A stretch of DNA of 18,617 nt from Escherichia phage YDC107_2, in sequence record CP025713.1, one strand, 5' to 3'. Shown here in pieces: positions 1 to 16,824 of this stretch. A program made the translations under genes and the position numbers. The stretch's first letter is position 1. Every line of letters begins with the position of its first letter. A model generated the notes under the pieces. The model saw nothing but the letters and a program-made list of their open reading frames with translations, searched no databases and was not told where the DNA came from.

Positions 1-1737
1 GCCGAGTTGTCTGCATTTCTTGGAGAAGCTTATAACACAATCGCCACTGGTGGGCTGAATAAGCTTACTGATACCGGCATGCGAATTTCCGGCGCACGTG
101 CTAACCGTGGTAATGCATCACGACAGATACATTTCAAAGATGCAGATTCATATCTGCAATATCAGCAACTTTATGGCGATCGCTCTCTATGGGAAATCAT
201 GGTCGGTCACCTGGAAGGTATCAGTAAAGATATTGCACTGGTGGAAACATATGGCCCAAACCCCGATCATGTTTTCCGCTCTCTTCTTGATCAGGTGAAG
301 GCAGAAACGGCAACAGCTAACCCGAGTAAAACCGGTAAAGTCGAGCGGCTGGCGAACAACACAGAGAATCTGTACAACTTTATTTCCGGAAAGACACAGC
401 CTGTAGCGAATCCGCACATCGCGCGATGGTCTGACAATATCCGCAACTGGCTGGTTGCCAGCAGACTCGGATCCGCGTTGCTATCATCGTTCTCTGATCT
501 TGGAACCATGTATCTGTCTGCGAAGGTGACCAACCTTCCAATGAACCAGTTATTCCGCAACCAGCTTGAAGCTATGGACCCAACGACCGTACAGAACTTG
601 CGCGGGCGCGCCGCGCTGGTCTGGCAATGGAATCTCTACTTGGCAGCGTTAACCGCTGGGCGATGGATAATATGGGCCGTCAGTGTCTCGTTGGGCAGCA
701 ACGGCGGTAATGCGTGCCAGTGGGCTTACAGCATGGTCAGATGCGCACAAGCGCGCCTATGGCGTAACCATGATGGGAAGCCTGGGAGAAGTAGTGTCAC
801 GGACACCAGACCTTCGTAGCCTCGATGACTCTGATTTTCGTATCCTGAAAAGCAAAGGGATTACTGACACAGACTGGAGCGTATGGAAGCTGGCGCAACA
901 GGAGGACTGGGGGAACGGTAATAATACGATGCTGACACCGGAAAGCATTATGCGTATCCCTGATTCAGCAGTTAAACATCTTGGTGAGCCTGAACGCGTG
1001 AAATTTGAGGCAATGCGTAAACTGCTCGGTGCCGTAACTGAAGAAGTTGATATGGCTGTTATTACACCGGGAGCACGTGAGCAACTGATAACCGGTTCTG
1101 GTATTCAGCGTGGAACATGGAAAGGTGAATTAACGAGAAGTGTTTTCCTGTTTAAATCGTTCCCTATCTCGGTGGTTATGCGTCACTGGTCACGCGCTAT
1201 GGGTATGCCGTCTGCTGGTGGGCGTGCGGCATATATTGCGACGTTTATTGCCAGTACGACCATTCTTTGGCGCTTTGTCGCAGCAACTTAACGACCTTGC
1301 GTCTGGTCGTAATCCTCGCGAGATGACAGGAGAAGATGCTGCTAAATTTTGGCTTGGTGCTCTACTGAAAGGTGGTGGTCTTGGCCTTTACGGTGACTTT
1401 TATTGTCAGATCACACTAGGTACGGAAGCGGCGCGCTGGCGTCGATGCTTGGCCCGGTAGCTGGCCTGGTTGATGACGTAGTGAAGATAGCTCAGGGCAT
1501 ACCATTAAATGCTGTGGAAGGGAAGAACGAGCAGACTGGTGGTGATCTGGTGAAACTTGGGAAAGGGCTGATGCCAGGTGCGAATCTCTGGTACTTGAAG
1601 GCAGCTCTTGATCACATGATCTTTAACCAGATGCAGGAGTATTTTTCACCAGCTATTTGCGTAAAATGGAGCAACGTTCGAAGAAAGAGTTTAACCAGAC
1701 ATACTGGTGGCGACCTCAGGATGTCACTCCGCAATAA
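1..1737 (+). CDS. 3' portion of a large virion internal/ejection-type structural protein; gene starts upstream of the window and is split into four reading-frame segments
   Basis: Track ORFs 7..819, 683..1291, 1140..1460 and 1403..1756 overlap in successive frames; frame 1 is open from base 1. A further shift near 1640 gives a C-terminus ...YLRKMEQRSKKEFNQTYWWRPQDVTPQ ending at TAA 1735-1737. It lies immediately upstream of the tailspike, as ejection proteins do in P22-like podoviruses. The specific function is an inference. Confidence 0.45.
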
Positions 1738-1932
1738 GGAAGTGTTGTGTTTTTAATTATTTGAGTGTGATAATTTCTGGTGGGCTGTTATTTATTGACC
1801 GCTACAAATATTTTCTTAAACCCTCAGACTCAAGCTATTTGCTGGTTCATCTTTGTTGTGCAGGGAGTAGTTCTTGTTGCAAGCCTTATTGAGGGGAGGC
1901 CTCTGATTTTTACTGGGTAAATAGGTGACTAC

Positions 1933-2229
1933 ATGCAAGCTATAGGATTCATTGTTTATATCGTCGTTGGTCTTTTTCAGTTGGCAGCAATTATGGCTGG
2001 GCTTGAATCATGGTGGGGATTGCACTGGATAATTGCAGCCCCCATTGCTTTCATCGTGAGCTATATTCCATTTGTTGGAGCGATTGTTGGTATGGTTGGC
2101 GCTGTGGATGTATGGCGGTGGGAGTGGTGGCAGGCTGGCCTTCTCTTCTTTGGTGGGATAATCTTTGCTATTGTCTGCGGTGGAATGTCATCATTTTTCG
2201 AATGGCTATCATTCAGAAAAGGAACGTGA
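1933..2229 (+). CDS. small integral membrane protein (98 aa, about three hydrophobic helices); possible superinfection-exclusion or moron protein
   Basis: Intact track ORF; AGGTGA precedes the ATG at 1933; the protein is almost entirely hydrophobic (…IVYIVVGLFQLAAIMAGL…IAAPIAFIVSYIPFVGAIVGMVGAV…LLFFGGIIFAIVCGG…). It occupies the position of sieA in P22-like genomes (between ejection genes and tailspike). Confidence 0.5.
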   Translation: MQAIGFIVYIVVGLFQLAAIMAGLESWWGLHWIIAAPIAFIVSYIPFVGAIVGMVGAVDVWRWEWWQAGLLFFGGIIFAIVCGGMSSFFEWLSFRKGT

Positions 2230-2238
2230 CATGTCACA

Positions 2239-2262
2239 GGCCGCTTTCGCGGCCTTTTCTTT
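2239..2262 (+). terminator. rho-independent terminator after the membrane protein gene
   Basis: GGCCGC (2239-2244), loop TTTC, GCGGCC (2249-2254), followed by TTTTCTTT (2255-2262). Confidence 0.5.
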
Positions 2263-2361
2263 ATGTGGTTTGTTTTCGTAATTGTTCGGCACAATAGTCG
2301 AGATGTGTTTGCAGATCCTGCATAGACATCTGTGAGCTGGTGACGTAGTTAATCAGTGCAG

Positions 2362-2517
2362 TCAGTTCGGCAAGTGGCCATCGACATTAAATCCATCCTT
2401 ATCGAGATCCCGGAGTAATTTCATCAAGTGCGATCCCTCCACCAGTGACCTGACGCCTCCCGGCGTGTGAATCCTTTCGGTAAATCCGTCTTCCAGTGGA
2501 TAGTGATACTGCTGCAT
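2362..2517 (-). CDS. small ORF (51 aa as written, possibly about 86 aa if a +1 shift at the stop is an indel) divergent from the tailspike and preceded by a LexA box; candidate SOS-induced antirepressor-like or moron gene
   Basis: Hand translation of the minus strand: ATG at 2517, MQQYHYPLEDGFTERIHTPGGVRSLVEGSHLMKLLRDLDKDGFNVDGHLPN, stop 2364-2362. GGAG lies about 9 nt upstream. Below the 60-aa cutoff of the ORF track. The +1 frame continues ELTALINYVTSSQMSMQDLQTHLDYCAEQLRKQTT down to about 2260. Confidence 0.4.
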   Translation of the reverse strand: MQQYHYPLEDGFTERIHTPGGVRSLVEGSHLMKLLRDLDKDGFNVDGHLPN

Positions 2518-2536
2518 CTTATCTTCTCCATGCAAT

Positions 2537-2556
2537 AACTGTATATTTATACAGTA
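2537..2556. promoter_or_regulatory. LexA (SOS) box overlapping the putative promoter of the minus-strand small ORF
   Basis: AACTGTATATTTATACAGTA matches the E. coli LexA consensus TACTGTATATATATACAGTA at 18 of 20 positions, with a perfect CTGT-N8-ACAG core at 2539-2554. It sits 20 bp upstream of the ATG at 2517, between a TTGATA -35-like and a TATTGC -10-like hexamer on the minus strand. Confidence 0.6.
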
Positions 2557-2592
2557 TCAAATAATTTGTTTGCTATCCAGCACGTTTTGCAA

Positions 2593-2609
2593 ATTACCTG
2601 AAAGGTAAT
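2593..2609. promoter_or_regulatory. operator-like palindrome, site A (ATTACCTGAAAGGTAAT)
   Basis: Perfect 17-bp dyad of the recurring TTACCT-N3-AGGTAA motif, about 100 bp upstream of the tailspike ATG and adjacent to the LexA box. A GGTAAT half-site follows at 2652-2657. Confidence 0.5.
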
Positions 2610-2710
2610 ATCTGTTCGTATTCACACCCTTCTATCCATATGTGGTTTTCAGGTAATAGAATAACCAGATATGCGGCGCAACGGGTGCTGCGACTATCTG
2701 GAGATTTAAC

Positions 2711-5685
2711 ATGACGGTCTCAACCGAAGTTGACCACAACGAATACACAGGTAACGGCGTTACGACATCATTTCCGTATACCTTTAGGGTTTTCAAGGAA
2801 TCTGATCTGGCAGTACAGGTGGTTGACCTTGACGAAAAATATCGCTGTGCTGGCTCTTGATACTGATTACACTGTCACTGGGGCTGGTGGATATAATGGC
2901 GGTAATGTAATTCTGTCGAAGGCGTTAGCTAACGGTTATCAGATTTCTATATCACGAGAGCTACCGGTTACGCAGGAAACTGATCTGCGAAATCAGGGAA
3001 AGTTTTTCGCTGAGGTGCATGAAGACGCGTTAGATAAGCTGACGATGCTGATACAGCAAGTCCGCAGTTGGTTTAGCCTGGCGCTGCGCAAACCATCATT
3101 TGTGGCAAACTATTACGATGCTTTGAATAATTACATCCGCAATTTGCGCGATCCTTCCAAGCCTCAAGATGCAGCTACAAAGAATTATGTTGATAATATT
3201 GTTAATGTGAATATTAACAGGACATTACGGGTTCCAGATAATTTTATTGAACCACTTCCTCCAGTTCATTTACTGGAAGAAACTGTCATTGGTATCGTCA
3301 ATGGTAAACCTATAGGTGTACCTGTGCCTTCTGGCAGTGCCGCAGATGTTCTTCTGCAATTATCTAGCGCAGGAGAAGGAAAAGGTGATGCATTATTTGG
3401 TGTAAGGCAGCCATTTGCCGGGCTGTAACTATAACTCAGCATGAAAACAATGCTCTTTTCTTAAATGTAAAACAATTCGGAGCAATTGGGGATGGGAAAT
3501 ATCATCCATTATCTGAGAGGTTTTCTTCAATTTCTGAAGCAAAATCCTTATATCCTTTTGTTGACTCATTATCTCAGTCAATAGACTGGGCCGCGTGGCA
3601 AGCTGCCCTTAACACAGGAAAGGTTATTTATGGTACTGATAATGCGTATGTAATAACGGATACGTTAACACCTGTTTCTGGTGGTGGGATAATTTGTCTT
3701 GGTGTGGGCAAATGGGTCTCAGGATATACTGCAACATTTGCTCCTGATATTACCACAGGGACCACATTCCTGATGTACGGGGTAGGAAATAAAAAATATA
3801 CTGTAGATTGTGTTTCTAATATGGATGTTAGTGGTGGTGTGGTTTCTAATCCATCTTCCGAAGACCCGTATACAACAACGGCACCTGCGTCATCATATGA
3901 TTTATTGGATTTTACTAACGGTGATGCTAATGGGGCTACAAGAGCCACGCTTAAACCATTCTCTGCCGCAATATTGATGCCAGAGACAGGATGTGTTCGC
4001 CTTGAGAACTTTCGTATTGTTCCATATTTCAATGGGCTGGATGGTTATAAAGACATTGCAAATACCGGTCTTGGCGATGAGTGGGATGTAGGTATTTGGT
4101 CACGTGCGTCTTTGGCAATGAATACCGCAATTTGCAGGTGGTTGGATACTGGCGCAAGACGGCACTTTTAAAAACGAACATTCCTGTATCTGGCACGCTG
4201 GCCGCTCAGGGCGAGGATGAAAACTATTATCACTGTAGATTCCAGGGATTCAAGGGTGTTTCGATCCGCGCCCATGATGTATTCCGAATTACAGCGGTAA
4301 CGTCCAGCACTATCGAAATCCCATGGTCATCAAGCCACACCTTCGAAACGTCCGGGGTTTTAAGATCGGGAGGCAGGAATTTCACTTATTCAGGATTATC
4401 CGTATCCGGTGATAAGTTAGTATTTACTGGAGTGTCTAACGCTTCTGAGGCAACAGTAGGTTCTACTATACGGCGAAATGACATAGATAACTTTGGTATG
4501 GCGGGAACGCAATTTTTCGATTGCTACATTACCAGCCTGTATCACCACACACATCTGCTTGCCACATCGCAATACCTGTCTCAGCCATTCAGCCGGCCAT
4601 CAGAGTGTATGGAGGTTTCAGGGGAACCAGTTCGCGGTGTACAGGTACATGCAGGAACCATTCAGGGATGGGATGATGTTCTTATTCATCTACATGACTG
4701 TGGAAATATGAACTTTTACAGTACATATTTCGAAAGCCAGCAAGCATATGTAACTATAAATGGTGGTAATGCTATTGGTTATGGAGCACGTATGATAGCT
4801 TCCAGGCAATCAACAAGCTCATTACCATATGCAGCAGGGAATACTCGAGTGCTTAGAATGGTCGGGTGCTCTGAAGGCAATGGCGTTGACTGGGGTCCTG
4901 TATTTAACAACTATACAGGAGGAAGATATAATTCTGGAGACGGTGTATTTAACCCCCGCGATGCATTTATAGACCATAAATCTCTTCCTGAGCAGTCAGG
5001 AGGTGAGTCAAGACTCGTATCACAAAAAGGAAATGCCAGAGTAGTATGTGGTGTTGGTAAAACTGTACTGCTTGGACCAACGTCAGGAGATTGTAATTTA
5101 CAGAGCAATACCGGAAGTTTAAATATTAGAAGTGGGATAAGAGTAAGAATCGGTCACGCTGATGGAACAGACTGGTGGTTGGCAGATGCTAATAAAATAG
5201 CTCCTGTTGATGATAATGTTAAAGCTATTGGACAGCCATCAAACAGATGCTCTGTTATCTATGCAGGAACCGGGTCAATCAATACGTCAGATGAAACTCT
5301 TAAAACAAGATATGATATTCTTAATGCAGAGCGTAATGCCGCTATTGAAATAAAGTCAGTCATCTATAAATTTAAATTTAATGACTCAATTAATCACAAA
5401 GGAATTGAGTCGTCCAGGTATCATTTTGGCGTTGGCGCTCAAACCGTAGGGGATATTCTTAGAAAGCATGGTTTAAACCCGGAGCAATATGCTTTTTGGT
5501 GTTACGATGAATGGCCTGACGTATGGGATGAAGAGGTGATAACTGAAGAGAGCACAGATCCTGATACAGGTGAGAAAATTTATTCTCAATATAAAACAGG
5601 AGATATGATTCTTGTAAAAAAAGCAGGAGGACGCTACGGAATTCGTTATGACGAATTAGCCATGTTTATATTAATGTCAATGTAA
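2711..5685 (+). CDS. tailspike / tail fibre protein: conserved N-terminal particle-binding domain, central pectate-lyase-like beta-helix, C-terminal intramolecular chaperone (S74-like) domain; split by three frameshifts
   Basis: ATG 2711 with GGAG at 2700-2703. The N-terminus MTVSTEVDHNEYTGNGVTTSFPYTFRVFKESDLAVQVVDLDE matches from memory the N-terminal domain shared by podovirus tailspikes. Segments are frame 2 (2711-2860), frame 0 (2730..3428), frame 2 (about 3389..4171, containing NALFLNVKQFGAIGDGKYHP, pectate-lyase-like) and frame 1 (4081..5685). The C-terminus …NTSDETLKTRYDILNAERNAAIE… resembles auto-cleaving chaperone domains of endosialidase-type tailspikes. The first shift is one extra A in the A-run at 2835-2839. 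Confidence 0.7.
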
Positions 5686-5697
5686 TAATAAATGCAA

Positions 5698-5730
5698 TAA
5701 CCCGAATAAAACAGCGGGGTTATTGTTATT
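5698..5730 (+). terminator. possible weak terminator after the tailspike gene
   Basis: Imperfect stem AACCCG…CGGGGTT followed by a T-rich stretch; weak. Confidence 0.3.
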
Positions 5731-6017
5731 ATAATAATGCTCTTAACTTCTTAAATGATATTTATATGCACTTGGATTATTAAATCTATATTATGCCTGT
5801 TATTTATGTGTTCTGTTATATGTTTTGCAGGCACTGTTGGCAGCATTAAAGGAAATTGTATTTATGGCGAAATAGCTGGTATCGTGTTTTTATTGTGCGT
5901 AAAAATAACAGACTGCATATATTATTGTATAAAGTTTTGGAAATGAAAACACTCAAACTTACCGCTGTGGATATGTTTTGACCATCGCGAATTGGATTGG
6001 TAATATTGGGTAACAAA

Positions 6018-6033
6018 AAACCATAAATGGTTT
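6018..6033. promoter_or_regulatory. 16-bp perfect palindrome AAACCATAAATGGTTT upstream of the lysis cassette
   Basis: Exact dyad symmetry about 35 bp upstream of the AGGAGG for the first lysis gene; candidate regulator binding site. Function is an inference. Confidence 0.3.
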
Positions 6034-6068
6034 ATCATGCGTAATGCTTTACTGTTCAGGAGGTAGTT

Positions 6069-6495
6069 ATGCATATAAACGGTGGAAAACATGTCAGCTC
6101 AACTAACCAGTGAAACTTTAAATCAGTGGCTTAGCATGAGTTCTTTGGCGGCAGTGATAGCAGGAGTTCCTCCTGAGGTTGCTTTGGGGTCTTTGGCTGG
6201 GGCGGTGATTTTTGTTACCTCTGCGGTAGAGTATCCCATTCGTCGTCGCGTGCTCTTGTCGATGCTTAGCTTTCTCTGCGGACTTCTATTCTACAAACCA
6301 GCAGCATCAATTCTTATCGGCATAGCCAGCCTGATCCCTACAATCACACAGGATTCTTTCGAGAAAGGGATTGTTTTCTCTGCCGGTGCATTTGTGTCAG
6401 CAATCGTCGCTGTGCGAATTGGGATCTGGCTCTATCACCGTTCCGATAATCCACGCGAGTTAATTCCGGGGAGAAAAGACGATGGTAACTCATGA
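6069..6495 (+). CDS. holin-like membrane protein; start ambiguous between ATG 6069 (strong RBS, out of frame) and GTG 6082 / ATG 6091
   Basis: Track ORF 6082..6495 (137 aa) has several hydrophobic helices. AGGAGG at 6058-6063 is ideally spaced for ATG 6069, which is in another frame and gives only 14 aa; an indel in GGAAAACA (6085-6092) would fuse them into an M…M dual-start pattern typical of holin/antiholin pairs. Confidence 0.5.
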
Positions 6496-6790
6496 GCTTT
6501 TTTTGCTTACCACCAATGCGGTTATTTGCGCCGGTATAGCAGTTCGAGTTGCCACATTTCGGAGAAACGGTTCTCAACACAGGCGATGGGGTGGGTGGCT
6601 TGCTTATTTCCTGATTGTTGCTGCGGCCAGCATTCCAGTTCGTGTCGCTTATGCAATCTGGTTACGCACGCCAATGGTTGTGGATTTATCTGAGGTCATT
6701 ATCAACGCTGTCATGCTTGCTGCAGTCATTAAAACGCGCGGTAACGTAGTTCAGATTTTCAAAATAACGAGGTCTAAACATGGAGATTAA
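6482..6790 (+). CDS. second small membrane protein of the lysis cassette (holin or lysis accessory, 102 aa)
   Basis: Intact track ORF with GGAG upstream; two to three hydrophobic helices; overlaps the end of the preceding gene and the start of the endolysin. Confidence 0.45.
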
Positions 6791-7409
6791 ACAATTCCAG
6801 CGAGCTGCTGGTATCAGCGAGGAACTGGCCGCTCGCTGGTTCTCGCATATAACTTCTGCGATGAAAGAGTTTGGTATCAGCAAACCAGAAGATCAGGCAA
6901 TGTTTATTGCTCAGGTCGGGCATGAGTCTGGAGGCTTCACCCGGTTGCAGGAAAATTTCAACTACAGCGTAACCGGATTGGCTAACTTCGTTCGGGCTGG
7001 GCGTCTCACTCAGGGGCAGGCTAATGCACTTGGTCGCCGTGCTGGTGAACCACCATTGCCACTCGAGCGCCAGCGCGCGATCGCAAATCTGGTGTACAGC
7101 AAACGCATGGGGAACAATGCCCCTGGTGATGGCTGGAATTACCGTGGGCGCGGGCTTATCCAGATTACCGGTTTGAATAACTATCGTGACTGCGGAAACG
7201 GTCTGAAAGTTGACCTGCTGGAGAATCCTGAACTGCTGGCGCAGGACGAATACGCGGCTCGTAGCGCGGCGTGGTTCTTTGCCAGCAAAGGATGCATGAA
7301 GTATACCGGTGATATTGCACGTGTAACTCTGATTATCAATGGTGGCCGGAACGGCATCGACGACCGGCGCGCGCGGTACGTCACTGCCAGTAAGGTGCTG
7401 GCTATATGA
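6780..7409 (+). CDS. endolysin, glycoside hydrolase family 19 (chitinase-like) type
   Basis: 209-aa intact ORF; the motifs QVGHESGGF and [16 protein letters not shown] are characteristic of GH19 phage endolysins (from memory); GAGGT RBS; start overlaps the preceding gene. Confidence 0.75.
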
Positions 7410-7888
7410 TCTGGGCATTCGTAAAAGCATATTGGAAACAACTGATTATCGTGGTGATGCTTGCTGCTCTGTTCATCGTCGGAGTGGTTGCCTGGAATAT
7501 ACACGGCAGTCGCCAGTACGATGCCGGGTATGCGCAGGCGGAAGAAGACCGCAAAGACGAAGAAGACAAAGTTCGTCAGTACTACGAACAGGAGAAAGTG
7601 ACCAATGAACGTGAAGCGCAGCAGAGAATCGACCAGGCGCGCAATGATGCTCTTGATGCTGCCGCTCGCGCTGGCAGGTTGCAGCAACAACTCTTTGCCA
7701 TCCGTGAGCAGCTCAGGCAGTATAACGCCATTGTCGGCGCTGGGACGTCAGCCGCAGACACCGGAGTTTTGCTTGCCGACGTGCTCAGCAAATCTCTCGA
7801 GAGAAACAGACAACTGGCAGAGTATGCTGACCGGGCAGCCGAAGCCGGAAGAGTCTGCGAAAAACAGTATGACACCCTGACAAGATAG
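7406..7888 (+). CDS. Rz: Rz-like inner-membrane spanin
   Basis: 160 aa with an N-terminal transmembrane helix ([18 protein letters not shown]) and a long charged coiled-coil-like periplasmic region; the ATG overlaps the endolysin stop (ATGA). Confidence 0.6.
7605..7880 (+). CDS. Rz1: Rz1-like outer-membrane lipoprotein spanin embedded in the +1 frame of Rz
   Basis: Track ORF lies wholly inside Rz in another frame; it has a signal peptide with lipobox LALAGC followed by a Pro-rich mature region (classic embedded Rz/Rz1 architecture). Confidence 0.5.
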   Translation: MNVKRSRESTRRAMMLLMLPLALAGCSNNSLPSVSSSGSITPLSALGRQPQTPEFCLPTCSANLSRETDNWQSMLTGQPKPEESAKNSMTP

Positions 7889-8061
7889 CATGGCATTTTT
7901 CATGGTACTGATTTCCGGTGACGGTATATAAAACGGTACGGTGAAAATCATGTTGCAGGAAGTTGTTATCAGTCAATTAGTTATGGTATCCGTAAATAAT
8001 TGAGTGGGAATGATTAACAGCTAACTCATAGCAAATCATTCCTATTCAGATGCCAACTCAA

Positions 8062-8164: not shown

Positions 8165-8205
8165 CTCTCATACCGTCATGAAAATGGTTTCTATACGGGT
8201 GAATT

Positions 8206-9456
8206 GTGCTTACCGATACAAAATTAAAAAACCTCAAGCCGCAGGACAAACTGTACAAGGTCTCCGATCGTGACGGGCTGTATGTAGCTGTGCTTACGTC
8301 AGGCACGGTCTCATTTCGTTATGACTACCGTATCAACGGTCGCCGCGAAACACTGGTAATCGGGCAGTATGGGCGTGACGGTATCAGCCTGGCAGAAGCG
8401 CGGGAAGAACTGATTGCTGCAAAGAAGCTGCTTAAAGCAGGCCAGTCACCGGCTGCGGCTAAACGTGACGGTATCAAAAAGATTCGTGGTGCCGAAACGT
8501 TTGCGGTACATACCGACAGTTATATGAAACACGTCATCCTGGCTGAAAGTACCCGCGCAATGAAGCAGGCAGTGATCGACCGTGACATACTTCCGGTTCT
8601 TGGCAACAAAATGATGGCTGAAATTACCACATCGATGGTTCGTGATTTGTGTGACCGGATTGTCGAACGCGGTGGCCGGGCAACAGCAGTGCAGGCCAGG
8701 GAGATCATCAGCAGCGTATACCGTCACGCCAATGACCGTGGTCATGGTTTGTTTAATCCTGCGGCTGACATTAAGCCTTCGTCTATCGCCATATTTAAAC
8801 CACGAGAGCGAACACTGACACCAGAAGAAATTGGCCTGTTCTTCCGCACGTTGGATGCCATTGGTGCTATGGGCACTATGAAAATGGCTTTAAAACTGGT
8901 GCTTATCACTATGGTTCGTAAGGGCGAATTCACCAATGCAACGTGGGATGAAATAGATTTTAAAAAATGGACATGGACAATTCCTTCAGACCGCATGAAG
9001 GGAAGCCGGGCGCATGTTATTTACCTGCCTAAACAGGCTCAGGATATATTGGTCGGGTTGCAGATGTGCGCTGGTGGAAGTGAATATCTGGTTCCTGGTC
9101 GTTACAATTTCCGGAAGCCATTATCTAATGCCGCGCTGAACTCTCTGATCGACAGAACGGTGAAAATAATAAATGAAGATGGTGAGCATATTCAGGATTT
9201 CACCGTACACGATATGCGCCGTACAGCCAGTACGTTGTTGCATGAGGCTGGTTATCCTTCAGACTGGATTGAAAAGGCTCTGGCACATGAGCAGAAAGGT
9301 GTGCGCGCCGTATATAACAAAGCGGAATACGCCAGACAGCGCGCCTACATGTTGCAGCAGTGGGCCGATATGATTGATTCCTGGATTAACGGGGAGCATA
9401 CGGATCTGATTCCGTTCTCCCCGTCGAAGTTTGAGAAGTGGATGGCGGGGGAATAA
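8206..9456 (+). CDS. int: tyrosine recombinase / phage integrase, P4-like with N-terminal arm-binding domain
   Basis: 416-aa intact ORF with GTG start. The N-terminus LTDTKLKNLKPQDKLYKVSDRDGLYVAV is typical of the arm-DNA-binding domain of P4-family integrases; the C-terminal catalytic region carries the HxxR…Y pattern (…HDMRRTASTLLHEAGY…AHEQKGVRAVYNKAEY). Confidence 0.85.
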   Translation: MLTDTKLKNLKPQDKLYKVSDRDGLYVAVLTSGTVSFRYDYRINGRRETLVIGQYGRDGISLAEAREELIAAKKLLKAGQSPAAAKRDGIKKIRGAETFAVHTDSYMKHVILAESTRAMKQAVIDRDILPVLGNKMMAEITTSMVRDLCDRIVERGGRATAVQAREIISSVYRHANDRGHGLFNPAADIKPSSIAIFKPRERTLTPEEIGLFFRTLDAIGAMGTMKMALKLVLITMVRKGEFTNATWDEIDFKKWTWTIPSDRMKGSRAHVIYLPKQAQDILVGLQMCAGGSEYLVPGRYNFRKPLSNAALNSLIDRTVKIINEDGEHIQDFTVHDMRRTASTLLHEAGYPSDWIEKALAHEQKGVRAVYNKAEYARQRAYMLQQWADMIDSWINGEHTDLIPFSPSKFEKWMAGE

Positions 9457-9459
9457 CGT

Positions 9460-9654
9460 TTAATTATTCTGCTGATTTTCTTCCATCTCGGCTTCTGCTG
9501 CCAGTGATTCAATTTTATCTGTGAATATTGCTGACAGTGTTGCAAATTCAGCATCAGTGACAGCGGGAATTGGAACAAACCTGATCCCGCTGTGTGCAAG
9601 CATGTTTGCAGTTTCAAGGCATTTCCTTAAATCTGATGGTGATGCCCTGTTCAT
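9460..9654 (-). CDS. small acidic protein (64 aa) translationally coupled to the methyltransferase; function unknown
   Basis: The ATG at 9654..9652 overlaps the methyltransferase stop (ATGA); it is in frame with track ORF 9460..9774; sequence MNRASPSDLRKCLETANMLAHSGIRFVPIPAVTDAEFATLSAIFTDKIESLAAEAEMEENQQNN. No homology recognised. Confidence 0.35.
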   Translation of the reverse strand: MNRASPSDLRKCLETANMLAHSGIRFVPIPAVTDAEFATLSAIFTDKIESLAAEAEMEENQQNN

Positions 9655-10301
9655 GCTGCACGCTCCCGCCCCTGGTTGTCTGTTGGTGACAGCGGAGCAT
9701 TGCTGAATGCATTTGTTAATCTGGCAATATCCAACGCGTATCCAGGGTGTAGTTGCACTGCCGGGTCTTCGCACTGATTACCCCAAACATCGAAACCATG
9801 AGACGACTGGCGGGCGAACAGTTCAATGCGAGAAACATCGCCTAACAATTGCACAAGTTTTTCACGAACGATATCTGGTTTTCTTGAATGCTCAAGCCGC
9901 GGTGCGGTAAATGACTGAACGATCCCTGCATTAATGCGCGTAGGTAGTTTTCCCTTTACTGCAAACAGGCAATCTTCACTATTGGCGCGAGTCATGTGAC
10001 CCATACCCATAACCAGTTTATCTGGTTGTCGACTACCACATTTTATCCACGTGAATCCCTTCATGGTCATCAGACGGAATCCCCAGGCCTCAACAACTTT
10101 TAGTGCTTCGAGTGGTTGTGTTGGCACCCACCACATGGCCAACAGACAGTTTTCATCGGCCAAATCCCACACAGGAAGGCGGCAGATATCCAGCACACTC
10201 ATAACCGGATATTTAAAACCGGCACCGCGATTACCATCTGCGGCTTTGTCCCGGTATACCCAGGGTGGATCTGCATAGATTAGTGTGTATTTCTTAGTCA
10301 T
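9651..10301 (-). CDS. DNA N6-adenine methyltransferase, MT-A70 family (orphan phage methylase)
   Basis: MTKKYTLIYADPPW… carries the DPPW catalytic motif of MT-A70 / Dam-like N6-adenine methyltransferases. The likely start is the ATG at 10301 (the track extends upstream to 10313). No restriction partner is visible. Confidence 0.7.
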   Translation of the reverse strand: MTKKYTLIYADPPWVYRDKAADGNRGAGFKYPVMSVLDICRLPVWDLADENCLLAMWWVPTQPLEALKVVEAWGFRLMTMKGFTWIKCGSRQPDKLVMGMGHMTRANSEDCLFAVKGKLPTRINAGIVQSFTAPRLEHSRKPDIVREKLVQLLGDVSRIELFARQSSHGFDVWGNQCEDPAVQLHPGYALDIARLTNAFSNAPLSPTDNQGRERAA

Positions 10302-10560
10302 AAACCACCCCACAACATCCTATGCCGCTATAGTCGCCACGGCGAAGGCCGTTACCTTTTGTGATACATTGGTCCCTGCGAACCGCGATCCTTGCACGCT
10401 CAACATCACCAGAAGCAACATCCATACACTGAAGCCAAAGGTGAGCGGCAATGCGGAACTGCCCTTTTTTCTCTCTTTCAATCGCGCGTTTTTCGATCTC
10501 TATCGCCGCAGGAGTAACGGCGACAATCTTTGACGGACTGCGCATTGAAACCTTGTTCAT
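10294..10560 (-). CDS. PerC-like transcriptional activator family protein
   Basis: …KRAIEREKKGQFRIAAHLWLQCMDVASGDVERARIAVRRDQCITKG… resembles the PerC family signature (Lys-Gly…RRAA…W…RRDQC) from memory. The start is ambiguous: ATG 10560 or GTG 10593. Confidence 0.5.
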   Translation of the reverse strand: MNKVSMRSPSKIVAVTPAAIEIEKRAIEREKKGQFRIAAHLWLQCMDVASGDVERARIAVRRDQCITKGNGLRRGDYSGIGCCGVVYD

Positions 10561-10702
10561 GTGATATTTTTCAAGTCGGCTTAACTTTCTCACTTAATCC
10601 AACCCTCTCTGAAAATTAATGCCAGCAGATAAAGCCATGCTGAAACAGAGGCCAGGAATAAGTACCATCCTGACCATTTGCTCCAGTGCCTTAGCAGCAC
10701 AC

Positions 10703-10951
10703 TCATGCCGCGTTGCTCACGGGACGATATACACGTTGCTGAACAGGAGGTTTTTTACCCTGGAACTCTGCCGGGCTTGCTGCCTGACGTTCATCAAGCC
10801 AACGCTCAACTTCATCACGGTTCCATGCGCAGCGTTTATCGGTGATATACCAGCGTTTAGGAAATTCCCCTGCGCGCTCCATACGGTCGATAGTGCTCCA
10901 TGACAGTGGAACCACCGCCAGGAGTTCCTTCTTACCTAATGCACCTTTCAT
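10703..10951 (-). CDS. AlpA-family phage transcriptional regulator / excisionase-like HTH protein
   Basis: 82 aa; LLAVVPLSWSTIDRMERAGEFPKRWYITDKRCAWNRDEVERWL matches the AlpA pattern (…LSRSTIYR…G.FPKP…AW…E.WL). Confidence 0.65.
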   Translation of the reverse strand: MKGALGKKELLAVVPLSWSTIDRMERAGEFPKRWYITDKRCAWNRDEVERWLDERQAASPAEFQGKKPPVQQRVYRPVSNAA

Positions 10952-11000
10952 AAATACCTCTCTTGGTTGCAGTGCGGCGCGCGTGGCGCCGCGGTGGTGG

Positions 11001-11942
11001 TTACATAGATGTTTCGTTTAATTCTTCCCGACGAACGCTGTAAACGTCGGTGGCTTTTGCCAGCAGTTCGTCATCATCTGAAAGTTTTTGTGCAATGTAT
11101 TTGTAAGCCTTATCCAGTTCGGAGACAGTGCTGTAATTCATCGCTGCGCTGGTAAAGGCCATCAGCATTTCTTCTGGATCACGGCTGTCCGATTTACGCG
11201 TTTGCTCATCAGGCTTTTTCGCTGGTTTAGCGTTGATCAGACTGTTCATTCCCGCAGCAGTGGTCGTTTGCGGAGTAATGTCTCGCTCAACGCGCGGTGC
11301 CGTTTCCTGTAATTCGTCTGGGGTGTAGACGCCCATGATTACGTCAGGACAGTGCAGGCGAGACCAGCGTTTTGTCGCAAGGTATGCGAGTTGTTGTTTC
11401 GGATCACTGGCCCAAAGTGTGGAGTTTCTTACCTGTGCTTGAGACAGCATTAACTCAAGCACTCGAGGTTGATCCTCGCCCTTCATGGTTGCCCATACGC
11501 GAACACCGCAGCCTTCTTCGTCTTTTAGAGTCCAGCCTGGTGCGATATATGGATTGCCGTTTTTGGATGTTTTCTCAACAAACTTACCGATCACGCGTTC
11601 CCACGGCCCGAACCACTCGTAGTTGATGCGATCTTTTGTTGGCGACATCGTTGAGATAACTGCGTTTACTAATTGGGCTTCATAACCTAGCGTGCCGTTC
11701 ACAACATGGGTTTTCTGAGCCACGGCAAACGGGTTCATTCCCCACTGCGCAGCCTGCATTGCCACGGCCATGCAATCAGCTGGTTTCCCGGCGAGGTGCG
11801 CCGGTACCGTTACGCGGCTTTGCGCCATTACCTCGGCGAATTTCATCAGTTGGTTCAAGCCGTCTGGGCTGAAAATAGTTGCAGCAGTTCCAGCGATTGC
11901 TGTGTCTACTGGTGCGTTGATGTTTGCGATGTCGTTGCTCAT
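11001..11942 (-). CDS. recT: RecT-family single-strand annealing recombinase
   Basis: About 313 aa. The ATG at 11942..11940 overlaps the exonuclease stop (ATGA). The RecT assignment rests on length and pairing with the adjacent exonuclease; the family call is from memory. Confidence 0.65.
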   Translation of the reverse strand: MSNDIANINAPVDTAIAGTAATIFSPDGLNQLMKFAEVMAQSRVTVPAHLAGKPADCMAVAMQAAQWGMNPFAVAQKTHVVNGTLGYEAQLVNAVISTMSPTKDRINYEWFGPWERVIGKFVEKTSKNGNPYIAPGWTLKDEEGCGVRVWATMKGEDQPRVLELMLSQAQVRNSTLWASDPKQQLAYLATKRWSRLHCPDVIMGVYTPDELQETAPRVERDITPQTTTAAGMNSLINAKPAKKPDEQTRKSDSRDPEEMLMAFTSAAMNYSTVSELDKAYKYIAQKLSDDDELLAKATDVYSVRREELNETSM

Positions 11943-12760
11943 ATGTACATATCCTGTTTGCGTGCCCACTCAGGGCGTTTAATGATTTCCACACCGCCCC
12001 ATTCATCATTGATGCGGCATTCGTGATAGGTATTCAGATCCCGGCGGAACAGAGCGTGCCCGGCATCGACATCCTGCGCATCCAGCTCGAACACGCGTAC
12101 CGGATACCGACCACAATCAATGCTTTCGCTCACGGCAAGAAAGAAAAAACCATGCGGCTGACCAGTAACCCTCATTGCGCCTTCGCGGTACATTGCGTCC
12201 TGCACGTGGTAGCGGAATTCCTCGATGTGGCGTGCAAAACGGTCCATATCTGCAACCTTTTTCACGTCGACGATCACGTTGTGCTCGTTCAGCCATTTGT
12301 CTGGACGAATTCGGCACAACTCCCCCGTCTCTTCATCGTTCCAGTACATTGATGCTTCGCAGTAACCAGGTGCTTCCAGCATCCAGCGTGCCGCCGGGTG
12401 AGCCATTGCGCTATCACGCATCAGCTCCAGTTTCCGCCACTGCTCGGCATCAAGTACCGTAATCCCCATATCCGCCACATCACGAAGAAATTCCTCTTCG
12501 TCAGCTTTACCTTGTTTCGTCCGACGATCGAATTTCGGTGAAACAATGAAGCGTTTGTCGAACTCTCCAGGCTCCAGAAGCAGACAGTGCAATGCGGTTC
12601 CCATATCCAGTGCAGACTTTTTCTCTTCGTCTTCTGGTGCTGCCTGAACCCATTTAAGAAGCGCCGGATTCTTGGCAACCATGTCCAGTTGCGACTTACT
12701 CACGCCGTCACCGGCGTGGTAGTCTTCGTTGCTGATGTCGAAATAAATTCCCGGTTTCAT
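11939..12760 (-). CDS. RecE-like PD-(D/E)XK 5'-3' exonuclease, partner of RecT
   Basis: 273-aa intact ORF beginning MKPGIYFDISNEDYHAGDGVSKSQLD…, with …RIRPDKWLNEHNVIVDVKKV… consistent with a PD-(D/E)XK nuclease core; translationally coupled to the flanking genes. Confidence 0.6.
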   Translation of the reverse strand: MKPGIYFDISNEDYHAGDGVSKSQLDMVAKNPALLKWVQAAPEDEEKKSALDMGTALHCLLLEPGEFDKRFIVSPKFDRRTKQGKADEEEFLRDVADMGITVLDAEQWRKLELMRDSAMAHPAARWMLEAPGYCEASMYWNDEETGELCRIRPDKWLNEHNVIVDVKKVADMDRFARHIEEFRYHVQDAMYREGAMRVTGQPHGFFFLAVSESIDCGRYPVRVFELDAQDVDAGHALFRRDLNTYHECRINDEWGGVEIIKRPEWARKQDMYI

Positions 12761-13020
12761 GCCGCGTCCCTCTGCCCATCAAGCTGATCAGCCAGATCCC
12801 AGCGGGCGATAATTGCCATTGCCTCGCGCCGGTAGGCATCCATTAGTTCTTCGAACTCAGGGCTGTCTTTAGCGGCCTCCAGTACTTCCTGGCGAACGCC
12901 TTTAACTGTTACAACGTCGAAAGTTGATGCCAGTTGATGAAGCCGGATACTCTCAATCAGTTCAACTTGTCGGTCATATAGCTGTTCTGACAGACGGTAG
13001 TCCTTGTCGAATGCCAGCAT
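12757..13020 (-). CDS. hypothetical early protein (87 aa, helical), first long gene of the leftward early operon
   Basis: Intact track ORF whose stop overlaps the exonuclease start; no motif recognised. Lambda places gam/kil-type genes in this position. Confidence 0.45.
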   Translation of the reverse strand: MLAFDKDYRLSEQLYDRQVELIESIRLHQLASTFDVVTVKGVRQEVLEAAKDSPEFEELMDAYRREAMAIIARWDLADQLDGQRDAA

Positions 13021-13057
13021 GATTTTTGAAGATTTTTCTGCTGATTAACGTTCATTA

Positions 13058-13210
13058 TCAGCCCTCCCATATCTCGTTATCGTTGGCCACATCGCGAGCT
13101 TCTTTGCTGACGAAAGCCCACTTAATGCCTTCCTGTAAGGTGCGGAACTTCCAGCTCATGAATCCGCATGCAGTAACGCAGTACCAACCGTTGATGATTT
13201 TCCACTGCAT
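13058..13210 (-). CDS. small hypothetical protein (50 aa) immediately downstream of the early-left promoter
   Basis: Hand translation MQWKIINGWYCVTACGFMSWKFRTLQEGIKWAFVSKEARDVANDNEIWEG; GAGGT lies 9 nt upstream of the ATG at 13210; below the track cutoff. Confidence 0.35.
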   Translation of the reverse strand: MQWKIINGWYCVTACGFMSWKFRTLQEGIKWAFVSKEARDVANDNEIWEG

Positions 13211-13228
13211 AACTTGTTACCTCGGTCT

Positions 13229-13245
13229 GTTACCGTTGAGGTAAT
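13229..13245. promoter_or_regulatory. operator-like palindrome, site C (GTTACCGTTGAGGTAAT) at the early-left promoter
   Basis: TTACCG-N3-AGGTAA, directly abutting the -10-like element; an extra TTACC half-site lies at 13217-13221. Confidence 0.5.
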
Positions 13246-13272
13246 AATTATGCGTATATGGTTTGATGTCAA
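13246..13272 (-). promoter_or_regulatory. candidate early-left (pL-like) sigma-70 promoter
   Basis: On the minus strand a perfect TTGACA -35 (13272..13267) is followed 15-17 nt later by a CATAATT -10-like element (about 13252..13246), bracketed by operator sites D and C. Confidence 0.4.
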
Positions 13273-13290
13273 TAGATATGAGTTAAAAAA

Positions 13291-13307
13291 ATTACCCGTT
13301 AGGTAAT
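13291..13307. promoter_or_regulatory. operator-like palindrome, site D (ATTACCCGTTAGGTAAT)
   Basis: TTACCC-N3-AGGTAA, between the repressor terminator and the -35 of the early-left promoter. Confidence 0.5.
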
Positions 13308-13316
13308 CGAATAGGC

Positions 13317-13340
13317 AATAAAAAGCCGCCATAAGGCGGC
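13317..13340 (-). terminator. rho-independent terminator of the repressor gene
   Basis: GCCGCC (13325-13330), loop ATAA, GGCGGC (13335-13340); on the minus strand the stem is followed by TTTTTATT (complement of 13317-13324). Confidence 0.5.
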
Positions 13341-13362
13341 TTACTTACTGAAAAATATGGTT

Positions 13363-13948
13363 TTATTGTTTGTTTTTTTCGTTCTGGTTGATGACAAATT
13401 CAATGTAACTTTCGATCTTTGCTTTCTCGGTTTCGGGTAACAATGCGTAGCGCGAGCGATCATAGTTGATGGTCGCAGGGTCGTGCGGGTGAATCAGTAA
13501 TTCATAGCCGTGACGCCCGAATGCGGATGCAACATTCTCCAGGGTGGAAATGGAAACGCTGACCTCATTGTTTAACAGGCGGCTGATTGTCACCTGGGCG
13601 ACGCCGGATGCGCGGTGAAGTTTTCCCTGTGTTGAAAGGTCGCGGCTTTCGCTCATCCAGCGTTCCAGGTTGTGAGCCGCCAGCTGGCCAATGTCGCTTG
13701 GGCCGACAGGCTGAAAACCTTCCTGAGAAAGCGAGCGATCGATATCAAGCCAGTTACGGGGTTTATTGGCGGCAGCTTCAATTTTTCGCGCAACCTGATC
13801 GCCGATAACCTTCTTACCAAGAGCCCAGCGGTTTTACCAGATTTGCCTGAGTTCCAAGTTTTTCAGCCATCCGCGTCTGAACACCATTGAATTCACGGTC
13901 GATCAAGTCGTTGAGATTTTGCCTGCGGACGTCCTGGATACTTTTCAT
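13363..13948 (-). CDS. immunity repressor candidate: CI-like protein with two HTH-like regions and no recognisable LexA-like S24 cleavage domain; one frameshift
   Basis: Minus-strand ATG at 13948 gives MKSIQDVRRQNLNDLIDREFNGVQTRMAEKLGTQANLV… (HTH), which stops after the A-run near 13830; the next frame continues …GKKVIGDQVARKIEAAANKP… into track ORF 13363..13656 (second HTH-like …GKLHRASGVAQVTISRLLNN…). It is divergent from the Cro-like gene with operator palindromes on both sides. Confidence 0.6.
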
Positions 13949-14002
13949 TTTCTGGAAAATCGCCTCATATCTGAATCAGAAGATGATTCAATTTAAAGCA
14001 AT

Positions 14003-14019
14003 ATTACCCAACAGGTAAA
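14003..14019. promoter_or_regulatory. operator-like palindrome, site E (ATTACCCAACAGGTAAA) in the repressor/cro intergenic region
   Basis: TTACCC-N3-AGGTAA; a degenerate copy GCACCTCATGGGTAAC follows at 14021-14036. Confidence 0.5.
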
Positions 14020-14050
14020 TGCACCTCATGGGTAACTATCCTTGATTTTT

Positions 14051-14067
14051 GTTACCTTATAGGTGAA
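14051..14067. promoter_or_regulatory. operator-like palindrome, site F (GTTACCTTATAGGTGAA)
   Basis: TTACCT-N3-AGGTGA, one mismatch; about 35 bp upstream of the Cro-like ATG; a TTGATT -35-like hexamer lies at 14042-14047. Confidence 0.45.
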
Positions 14068-14102
14068 TATTTATTATCTGAAATAAATATCAGGCAATAG
14101 CT

Positions 14103-14333
14103 ATGAGCGATAACGGACATTTCGATTTCAAAAAGCACTGGCTTGCACTTACTCCGGATGAGCGTGAAGCCTTCGCACAGGAAGCCGGAACGACGAGTCA
14201 CTATATCCAGACTCACTTAACAGGTAAGCGCAAAATGCCAGGTAAGGTATTGATGAATGGGCTTTTTAAAGCCTGTAAATCAAGACAATGGCTGCGCTCA
14301 AAAGCAGAACTGGTATACTTCTTCTACTCATGA
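14103..14333 (+). CDS. Cro-like / CII-like small HTH regulator (76 aa)
   Basis: Intact track ORF divergent from the repressor; …DEREAFAQEAGTTSHYIQTHLTGKR… has a helix-turn-helix signature; followed by a terminator. Confidence 0.5.
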   Translation: MSDNGHFDFKKHWLALTPDEREAFAQEAGTTSHYIQTHLTGKRKMPGKVLMNGLFKACKSRQWLRSKAELVYFFYS

Positions 14334-14355
14334 TATCCAGCTACAACCCTCTGTA

Positions 14356-14378
14356 GACCGCCACCCGGCGGTCTTTTC
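14356..14378 (+). terminator. rho-independent terminator after the Cro-like gene
   Basis: GACCGCC (14356-14362), loop ACCC, GGCGGTC (14367-14373), then TTTTC. Confidence 0.5.
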
Positions 14379-14387
14379 ATATCTATT

Positions 14388-14404
14388 CGTACCTCAAAGG
14401 TAAT
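14388..14404. promoter_or_regulatory. operator-like palindrome, site G (CGTACCTCAAAGGTAAT)
   Basis: GTACCT-N3-AGGTAA, one mismatch; downstream of the cro terminator and upstream of the zinc-ribbon gene. Confidence 0.4.
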
Positions 14405-14483
14405 AAATAACCAAATGTGGTTGATCTTTTTTTTGTGTCAGCACAAAATGACCGTAATCCCAATACTAATAACAGGGCTTACC

Positions 14484-14683
14484 ATGGAAATCATTACACG
14501 TATTGATGCCGCAAAGCGCGGACTTAAACGCTACTACACCGGAAAACATGTAAGCACGGACATGACAGTGAACGCTGGGTTTACAACGGACACTGTGTTG
14601 AGTGCACCATGGAATCAAACCGTCGTATCAGGGCAGAGATTAAGCAGATCATGATTAATTCCTCCCCACAACATTCAAGCTGA
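14484..14683 (+). CDS. small zinc-ribbon-like protein (about 66 aa) between cro and the replication genes; one frameshift
   Basis: ATG 14484 with AGGG RBS gives MEIITRIDAAKRGLKRYYTGK…; after the A-run near 14540 the next frame reads …TCKHGHDSERWVYNGHCVECTMESNRRIRAEIKQIMINSSPQHSS, with a Cys/His cluster consistent with a zinc ribbon. Confidence 0.4.
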
Positions 14684-14698
14684 TAGCGGAGATTAATC

Positions 14699-15545
14699 AT
14701 GAGCAGACATGCAACAGATTGGGCCTGGGAGACAGATCCAGGTAGCTCGTCATTAAAGCTCATACTGCTCTCGATGGCTGACAGAGCCGAATGAATATAA
14801 CCTCTGCTACCCCAGCATAGAACGCCTCGTTAAAGACACTTGCCTGAATAAAAAAACCGTGCAGGCCGGGCTTATATCGCTCATGAAAATGGGGCTTATT
14901 TCAGAATACCGGAGAGAGAAAGGGAGCGACGAAAAGAGTGCGGGTTTTCTCTCTTAATATAACCAAAAACGGGAACATTAAAGGCAACCGGGAAGGGGTA
15001 ATGAACCGAAAGCGGTAATGTTACCGGAAAACGGGAATATACCCAAAAAACGGGATGTTGAATGATCCCAAAAAACGGGATGTTGAATGATCCCAAAAAC
15101 GGGATCCAGAACCAGTCATATAACCAGTCATTTACCAAGAGAGGGAGAGCAGGACAAAAAACGGGGATTCTGTGCATCATGACCCCGGCGCAAACAACGC
15201 CGTGATGAATAACTTTGTTCCTCCTGGTGGGCTAGGGCAATTAGGCAAATTTGTCATGCATGAACAATGGCGGCCATCAGATGATTTCTTCGGAAAAGCT
15301 CATTGCAGGGGATCTACCTGGACAGTCTGCCAACGGCACAGGAACTTGCAGAGTTCAGAATTTACTGGATGGCTGAGGGTAAGGCATACCATCAGGCACA
15401 GTGGGAGCAGAAGCTGGCAAGGCGGCTGCAGATTAGCAGACAGAAGCAATCAACATTACCTGATAACAACGTTCCGCACTGGAACAGCCCTGAAGCATGG
15501 AGGATTTCTTGTGAACAACGTTTTTACCGCGATACAAAACCGTGA
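14699..15545 (+). CDS. replication initiator (lambda O-like organisation): N-terminal HTH domain, internal origin iterons, C-terminal DnaT-like domain; reading frame broken in several places
   Basis: ATG 14699 with GGAG RBS gives MSRHATDWAWETD…; after a shift near 14775-14790 it continues …NEYNLCYPSIERLVKDTCLNKKTVQAGLISLMKMGLI… (replication-protein HTH). The iterons lie at 14963-15170. Track ORF 15303..15545 (…TAQELAEFRIYWMAEGKAYHQAQWEQKLARRLQ…) resembles the C-terminal domain of E. coli DnaT from memory. Confidence 0.5.
14963..15170. repeat. origin-of-replication iterons (AAAACGGGA-type direct repeats)
   Basis: The core ACGGGA/ACGGGG recurs six times at 14969, 15031, 15050, 15075, 15099 and 15161, including two identical tandem 25-bp copies CCCAAAAAACGGGATGTTGAATGAT (15042-15066 and 15067-15091). 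The region also holds a palindrome CGGTAATGTTACCG (15013-15026) and a direct repeat ACCAGTCAT (15111-15119, 15124-15132). Confidence 0.55.
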
Positions 15546-15564
15546 CGGAGAAGCCCTTTCTCGC

Positions 15565-16298: not shown

Positions 16299-16335
16299 TA
16301 CCAGCGCGATAGCGCATTTTTTTTACGTCTCAATA

Positions 16336-16352
16336 ATTACCTATCAGGTAAC
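16336..16352. promoter_or_regulatory. operator-like palindrome, site H (ATTACCTATCAGGTAAC)
   Basis: TTACCT-N3-AGGTAA, in the intergenic region after the P-like gene. Confidence 0.45.
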
Positions 16353-16398
16353 AAAGCATTCTAAACTCTATTGATTTCGTGTCTTATGTGGTTTTTTA

Positions 16399-16415
16399 AT
16401 TACCTTAGAGGTAAA
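16399..16415. promoter_or_regulatory. operator-like palindrome, site I (ATTACCTTAGAGGTAAA), overlapping the RBS of the next gene
   Basis: TTACCT-N3-AGGTAA ending 3 nt before the ATG at 16418; the AGGT half doubles as the Shine-Dalgarno sequence. Confidence 0.45.
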
Positions 16416-16417
16416 TC

Positions 16418-16763: not shown

Positions 16764-16824
16764 ATCGACGATCTTTTTAGTTATCAATGTTATCAATAAG
16801 TTATGTGGATAAGCGAGGGTAAAG

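Follow-up and report, generated by a model that had tools for sequence, protein, structure and literature searches.

Our analyses support a remote homology between lambda Gam, an inhibitor of the host RecBCD nuclease, and the product of the second gene in the early-left operon of an 18,617-nucleotide stretch of DNA from Escherichia phage YDC107_2 (sequence record CP025713.1), the whole of which is referred to here as the window. This gene (12757..13055, minus strand; homologue of epsilon15 gp36 and phiV10p38, PHROG 856) encodes 99 amino acids (aa) in relatives and is frameshifted in the window by one missing base. Judged from profile comparisons, the 99-aa family shares detectable ancestry with Gam, of which it would be a new distant member outside the curated family boundaries, and we moderately favour the view that the protein also works like Gam. 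The gene preceding it (13058..13210, minus strand; homologue of epsilon15 gp37 and phiV10p39, PHROG 898) encodes a 50-aa protein and, by the pattern of its conservation, is a real gene under purifying selection. The window itself is the genome of a Uetakevirus (phiV10/epsilon15-like), with its early-left operon on the minus strand. An earlier account of the same DNA made from its letters (hereafter the sequence-only reading) had placed two small genes of 50 and 87 aa at the head of this operon.

The link to Gam emerged from profile methods. Hidden Markov models (HMMs) of the families of both small proteins were tested against all lambda and P22 early-left proteins (a set of 33), in which the best match of the 99-aa family was lambda Gam (E 1.2e-4; positions 35-86 against Gam 77-130). 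Pfam Gam (PF06064) was the best Pfam match among 11 divergent members of the family (E 0.0042), PHROG 259, "gam-like host nuclease inhibitor", was matched at E 0.016, and a profile search of the PDB led to GamS (5mbv, 2uuz) in one collinear stretch, 30-86 against 32-90 of 98. Alignment with hhalign against 18 Gam proteins gave a probability of 88.5% (P 2.7e-6), and 45 family members aligned against 95 Gam proteins gave 78.8% (P 1.6e-5). The real hhalign score of 36.8 lies about 10 standard deviations above those of 200 column shuffles of the Gam alignment (11.5 +/- 2.3, maximum 18.9); shuffles of 7-column blocks reached at most 22.6, and reversed alignments 17-19. In the reciprocal direction, a Gam HMM run against 3,332 six-frame open reading frame (ORF) segments ranked lambda Gam first, the next 24 places being all occupied by the 99-aa family. 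Gam and a weak match to lambda orf63 excepted, the family HMMs gave nothing below E ~0.1 among the lambda and P22 early-left proteins, and Pfam gave no match to N, cIII, Abc1, Abc2 or Arf. The orf63 protein (DUF1382), with an hhalign probability of 0.85%, serves as a negative control, and the HMMs rejected lambda N, cIII, Kil, Ea10 and Ral, as well as P22 Abc1, Abc2, Arf, Kil, C3, gene 17 and gene 24, for either protein. The description of both products as lacking recognisable motifs holds for single-sequence searches, which gave no significant match, and fails for profile methods, which connect the second gene with Gam. The few single-sequence matches of the two proteins in Pfam, NCBIfam and the PDB (designed beta-propellers, mucolipin) were attributed to chance.

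The residues shared with Gam can be read against the structure of its complex with the host enzyme. GamS, which corresponds to Gam residues 41-138, forms a dimer whose long N-terminal helix enters the channel for 3' single-stranded DNA (ssDNA) in RecB, and acidic residues of Gam mimic DNA phosphates on the RecB arm (PMC5218532). Among these contacts, Gam E111 and E114 form ion pairs with RecB K288 and R297 (PMC9836394 Table 1). The EF[EQ]E motif is common to both families, and within it E67 and E70 of the 99-aa protein align with Gam E111 and E114. Similarly, the two proteins are alike in their acidity, the 99-aa protein having an isoelectric point (pI) of 4.7 and a net charge of -6 and GamS, of 98 aa, a pI of 5.0.

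Several observations weigh against a Gam-like identity and function. The similarity is confined to the C-terminal two-thirds of the 99-aa protein, with no sequence similarity in the N-terminal helix, the part that in Gam enters the RecB ssDNA channel, and the Gam contact residues D48, E51, D107, E118 and E125 have no conserved acidic equivalents in the family, in which an acidic residue sits beside the D107 position. The PDB profile match to GamS reached only E 0.1, and those to PF06064 and PHROG 259 fall below the family thresholds. No single-sequence search gave a database-wide significant match to Gam, the window-type protein matched nothing in Pfam or NCBIfam, and an exhaustive HMM search of 1.8 billion representative proteins found the 99-aa family to be narrow (31 representatives at 50% identity), with no bridge from it to Gam. 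The AlphaFold2 (AF2) model of the 99-aa protein is all-helical (3-50, 56-63, 66-98) at moderate confidence, with a predicted local distance difference test score (pLDDT) of 67.6, and three fold searches retrieved generic helical matches only, Gam not being among them. As modelled, the structure neither supports nor refutes the Gam link. The combination of homology searches and structure prediction proposed as a check by the sequence-only reading was productive in its first half, which yielded the profile homology for the 99-aa protein, and of no help in its second, for either protein.

These weaknesses leave room for an alternative in which the 99-aa protein and Gam have a helical dimerisation domain in common by descent, and the 99-aa protein spares RecBCD, targeting instead SbcCD or another nuclease or defence hub, or serving the exonuclease and annealase as an accessory, in the manner of P22 Arf or Abc1. 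The restriction of the similarity to positions 31-86, with the N-terminal helix and most of the acids contacting RecB unconserved, would fit this alternative, as would the fast evolution of the protein (46-55% identity within the genus) and the constant adjacency of the Gam-like gene to recombination genes. Nevertheless, the best-conserved motif shared with Gam matches residues that contact the RecB arm, and no similarity to Abc1, Abc2 or Arf was detected (E ~1). The gene moreover abuts exonuclease genes of either of two types, DUF3799/RecT or the unrelated epsilon15-type exonuclease/annealase (15% and 22% identity). Because it has been kept upstream of two unrelated pairs, a host-directed role is favoured over that of a partner-specific cofactor. 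We regard this alternative as unlikely and retain a Gam-like action on RecBCD as the preferred interpretation of the 99-aa protein.

The extent of the gene had to be established by comparison with relatives. An 87-aa ORF is mechanically present at 12757..13020, where the sequence-only reading had placed the second gene; relatives carry instead a gene of 300 nucleotides (nt), encoding 99 aa, with a start 36 nt further upstream that corresponds in the window to the ATG at 13055. This ATG stands 2 nt after the stop codon of the 50-aa gene, with a GGGAGGG Shine-Dalgarno sequence ahead of it at 13068..13062 (TGATAATG). A run of five A (A5) at 13023..13027 (minus strand), which is six (A6) in phiV10 and YDC107, shifts the frame and yields the apparent 87-aa ORF. 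In complete E. coli genomes, 545 copies were retrieved with a 73-nt probe spanning the run; all differ from the window by one gap, and A5 is present in 0/545. The 99-aa protein matches PHROG 856 over its full length (E 5e-55 over 1-99 of 99), and in the protein clusters, which comprise more than 1,000 sequences, the 99-aa form predominates.

The missing base belongs to a wider pattern. A comparison of window positions 7999 to 18617 with the YDC107 prophage gave 0 mismatches and 30 single-base gaps, nearly all in short homopolymers (for example at 13027, 13324, 13835, 14547, 15050 and 16324). These insertions or deletions (indels) disrupt the repressor, which has 194 aa in relatives and is present in the window as 97-aa and 44-aa pieces, and also the DnaT-like and P-like replication genes. 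To judge from this comparison, 30 indels without substitutions is the signature of an error-prone assembly. Since the indels come without a single mismatch and A5 is absent from all complete-genome copies, the missing A most probably reflects an error in sequencing or assembly, and the 87-aa ORF is most probably a spurious truncated reading of the 99-aa gene. Were the deletion real, the Gam-like gene would be a pseudogene or would give, by initiation at the internal ATG 13020, an 87-aa protein shortened at its N-terminus. What speaks for this, and against an artefact, is that an identical 87-aa product and the A5 allele recur in three independent short Logan contigs (L029-L031) with few other indels (1-4 each over 2-3 kb). 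We nonetheless consider a genuine deletion very unlikely, given that the same class of indel breaks essential genes, including the repressor and replication genes, that no complete-genome copy has A5, that ATG 13020 has no Shine-Dalgarno sequence and that the clusters are dominated by the 99-aa form. The recurrence of A5 in the three contigs could be recurrent homopolymer error or a rare slippage variant.

As for the source of the window, its positions 1..8015 (tail fibre and lysis genes) match the opposite end of the same YDC107 prophage. Both ends thus match one prophage, which makes the window the excised or circular form of it across attP, in an indel-rich assembly. The attP junction, at about 7999-8015, adjoins the integrase gene (8206..9456).

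The 50-aa gene was confirmed where the sequence-only reading had put it, at 13058..13210 on the minus strand, with a GAGGT Shine-Dalgarno sequence (13223..13219) 8 nt upstream of its ATG; its omission from the ORF track, noted in that reading, would be expected of the ORF tool at its default cut-off of 60 aa. Size by itself does no better than chance, 68 ORFs of at least 30 aa being found within 5 kb, and because ORFs of this size are so common, the gene status of small ORFs rests on conservation. The 50-aa protein has a full-length match to PHROG 898 (E 1.9e-38 over 1-50 of 50); phiV10, epsilon15 and RefSeq E. coli prophages list it under the label hypothetical protein. Pairwise Nei-Gojobori ratios of nonsynonymous to synonymous substitution (dN/dS) between genus members are mostly 0.04-0.45 for both small genes, with dS often above 1 and near saturation, and in both the variable columns fall preferentially at third codon positions. 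Towards the 5' end of the 50-aa gene, codons differ at degenerate third positions (ATC/ATT, GGT/GGC/GGA, ACT/ACA/ACG/ACC, GCA/GCT/GCG) and still specify the same amino acids. The low dN/dS and this third-position variation identify both genes as protein-coding. The same data bear on the idea that the 50-aa ORF is untranslated and owes its conservation to a regulatory element, of DNA or RNA, located downstream of the operator. The first 60 nt at its 5' end are indeed highly conserved at the nucleotide level; against such an element stand the free variation of degenerate positions under fixed amino acids, the dN/dS values, the conservation of a good Shine-Dalgarno sequence and ATG, and the lack of any Rfam match (sub-threshold, terminator-driven matches only), which together make it extremely unlikely.

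Residues 1-33 of the 50-aa protein (MQWKIINGWYCVTACG[LF]MSWKFRTL.E.I.WAF) show 82-97% identity across the genus, compared with 42-78% for the repressor and 46-55% for the Gam-like protein, and its C-terminal tail is variable. The gene is always the first after the operator. Because residues 1-33 are so highly conserved, our best guess is that the product is a host-directed early protein binding a target conserved across Enterobacteriaceae. Certain observations weigh against any assignment of a role: the protein has no homologue outside the epsilon15/phiV10-like phage group, its AF2 model, a single helix with a pLDDT of 56, is uninformative and was left unused, and whatever function is proposed for it derives from position only. 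Searches of Pfam, NCBIfam, PHROGs and the PDB led to nothing outside its own family, and its family HMM showed no similarity to any lambda or P22 early-left protein. Two further readings of the protein were discarded. As a membrane protein it is too little hydrophobic (maximum Kyte-Doolittle mean over 15 residues, 1.1), and a resemblance to the beta-hairpin/helix unit of the YegP (DUF1508) type was unsupported by Pfam searches.

A more specific proposal makes the 50-aa protein functionally analogous to lambda Kil, imposing a transient block on host division, for example through FtsZ. Its size (50 against 47 aa), its place as the first gene of the operon and immediately before the Gam-like gene, recalling the lambda order cIII-kil-gam, and a very high conservation of residues 1-33 that suggests a conserved host target would all suit such an analogy. 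Against the comparison speak the lack of similarity to lambda or P22 Kil (family HMM E at least 0.9) and of any Pfam Lambda_Kil match among 15 members tested, a pI of 6.1 against 9.6 for Kil, and a related phage (L018) that keeps the Gam-like gene without the 50-aa gene. A Kil analogue therefore seems doubtful to us, and a host-directed protein with a conserved target remains our best guess for the 50-aa product. The suggestion that the two genes occupy a position of the N, kil, gam or cIII type holds for the lambda kil/gam block and for the second gene as a remote Gam homologue, and membership of the N, cIII or Kil families found no support.

Both genes are the first after a pL-like promoter, as had been proposed. 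The predicted sigma-70 promoter (TTGACA-17 nt-AATTAT, 13272..13244, minus strand) has 10/12 consensus matches and is conserved in YDC107, Tyrion, BUCT554 and L004. It is flanked by two operator-like palindromes of the form TTACC-N5-GGTAA, one at 13292..13306, 20 bp upstream of the -35 hexamer, and the other at 13230..13244, which adjoins the -10 hexamer and extends over the probable start of transcription. The palindrome has 10 matches in the window (up to 1 mismatch allowed) against 0.46 expected, sited at three promoter regions; its TTACC/GGTAA half-sites are invariant in seven divergent phages despite two different promoter types, and binding sites for the repressor are annotated at the corresponding position in the epsilon15 RefSeq record. 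On account of the promoter match, the enriched flanking palindromes, the epsilon15 annotation and the invariant half-sites, the assignment of 13272..13244 as a pL-like promoter is well supported by sequence criteria. Further copies of the palindrome lie in the intergenic region on the repressor/cro side (14004..14018 and 14052..14066) and at 14389-14403. Another pair (16337..16351 and 16400..16414) falls in the interval that separates the replication genes from the DUF1064 gene, which points to a third promoter under repressor control.

In phiV10 and YDC107, the order on the operon strand is helix-turn-helix (HTH) repressor (194 aa), terminator, 153-nt gene, 300-nt gene, RecE-like exonuclease, RecT, AlpA-like regulator, PerC, methylase and DUF1382, with the integrase beyond. 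The repressor gene of the window thus lies upstream of the early-left operon on the same strand, in contrast to lambda. Its intrinsic terminator (13323..13342, minus strand) consists of a GC stem followed by a T run, T5 in the window and T6 in relatives, and a terminator is annotated in phiV10. Downstream of the two small genes lies the PD-(D/E)XK (DUF3799) RecE-like exonuclease of 273 aa (11939..12760, minus strand), and the ATG of the RecT-family annealase (11001..11942, minus strand; 313 aa as annotated in YDC107) overlaps the exonuclease stop codon. The translational coupling of the second gene to the exonuclease was borne out by an ATGA overlap of stop and start codons (12760..12757, minus strand), the same abutment being found in L032, L035, L036 and L037.

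The region of about 1.1 kb around both small genes is 96-99% identical to the Uetakevirus phages phiV10, ZX5, PAS61 and EC.W1-9 and was found in 563 of the 5,426 complete E. coli genomes. The two genes are neighbours, with their order unchanged, in 35 phage records (from Escherichia, Salmonella, Klebsiella and Enterobacter hosts), and also in 6 representative genomes, from Scandinavium, Pseudocitrobacter, Citrobacter, Klebsiella and Candidatus Erwinia dacicola, whereas the different phage L018 has the Gam-like gene next to exo/RecT without the 50-aa gene. Although the sequence-only reading treated them as unknowns, both are already annotated as hypothetical proteins in every relative; PHROG 898 and PHROG 856 are both of unknown function, all named database members bearing the label "hypothetical protein", and literature searches found no published functional work on either gene.

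The intervals among the 50-aa, Gam-like and exonuclease genes are a hot spot for inserted small genes. Among related phages, inserts at L027 3647-3820, L021 3300-3437, L022 3297-3551 and L018 4249-4506 hold a 57-aa, a 45-aa, an 84-aa and an 85-aa HTH gene, and about 1 kb is inserted at L036 3148-4146. In epsilon15 (L020 3300-5231) and some Klebsiella and Erwinia prophages, the exonuclease and annealase are unrelated to the pair at 11001-12760 of the window (15% and 22% identity), and the two small upstream genes are kept beside unrelated pairs, a sign that modules have been exchanged within the operon. Annotation also varies. In Enterobacter phage Tyrion (L021; 2751-2963 and 2847-2996) the 50-aa gene is unannotated and an antisense 70-aa ORF, probably a mis-call, is annotated over the same DNA; its equivalent in the window is at 13026..13244 (plus strand). 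In phiV10 (L001 4943-6703) RecE and RecT are annotated as one fused 1761-nt gene, close relatives having two overlapping genes, and the fusion may be a frameshift or sequencing difference in the record.

In the model that these data support, the operon is switched on when the repressor leaves the two TTACC-N5-GGTAA operators, allowing transcription from the promoter at 13272..13244 through the 50-aa gene, the 99-aa gene, the RecE-like exonuclease and RecT, and then the excisionase with other genes behind it. Translation probably proceeds jointly through the first three genes, because their stop and start codons lie close or overlap. By analogy with Gam, the 99-aa protein would most likely act as an acidic helical dimer occupying the DNA-binding site of host RecBCD. 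Linear intermediates of phage replication and recombination would be protected by such a block, and double-strand ends would then be left to the phage's own exonuclease/annealase pair. A bolder version would see here a new class of early proteins and a takeover cassette, specific to epsilon15-like phages, in which the invariant 33-residue N-terminal module of the 50-aa protein binds and disables a conserved Enterobacteriaceae factor of division, repair or defence, and the co-translated, Gam-derived protein, its N-terminal helix re-targeted, blocks a nuclease or defence hub in a way unlike lambda Gam; this we hold to be quite unlikely.

A Gam-type function is what phage biologists would expect at such a position, and its assignment is new for a widespread family. 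Our results provide a testable function for PHROG 856, which comprises more than 1,000 sequences, occurs in about 10% of complete E. coli genomes and is hypothetical in every database. If true, the assignment would explain how epsilon15/phiV10-like phages keep RecBCD away from linear DNA and still rely on RecE/RecT-type recombination of their own, and a relative so divergent would reveal the essential parts of the Gam-RecBCD interface, with relevance for Gam-based recombineering, quinolone potentiation and defence systems, retron Ec48 among them, that sense the inhibition of RecBCD. The 50-aa protein, as the most conserved product of a mosaic region, is a good candidate in screens for host-directed small proteins. 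Furthermore, the case carries a lesson of method, an apparently "novel" short ORF having arisen from a homopolymer indel.

Comparison with known systems places the two genes as follows. P22 Abc2, Abc1 and Arf are likewise small proteins (97, 94 and 47 aa) encoded beside a phage recombinase and modulating RecBCD or the annealase; they have no detectable similarity to either window protein. Lambda Kil (PF06301) and P22 Kil resemble the 50-aa protein as small early proteins encoded immediately upstream of a gam-type gene, and differ from it in sequence and charge, so that family membership is unsupported. The likeness to lambda Gam is more extensive. The 99-aa protein and GamS (98 aa) are both acidic, show collinear profile homology over about 55 residues, including the motif G-x(13-14)-EF[EQ]E-x(12)-IA, and are encoded in an early-left operon directly upstream of a phage exonuclease/annealase pair; the 99-aa protein may in addition be all-helical with a long N-terminal helix, as predicted at moderate confidence. 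They differ in that identity is only about 21-22% over the aligned part, that the 99-aa protein is without the N-terminal extension of the GamL type, and that the E. coli phages pair the Gam-like gene with RecE-like/RecT rather than with Exo/Bet. Finally, epsilon15 gp36/gp37 and phiV10 p38/p39 are direct orthologues that agree in order, spacing and operator context; identity is 98-100% for the E. coli-type phages and 50% (99-aa protein) and 79% (50-aa protein) for epsilon15, and the gp36 homologue of the window departs from these orthologues by its one-base deletion and otherwise in nothing of kind.

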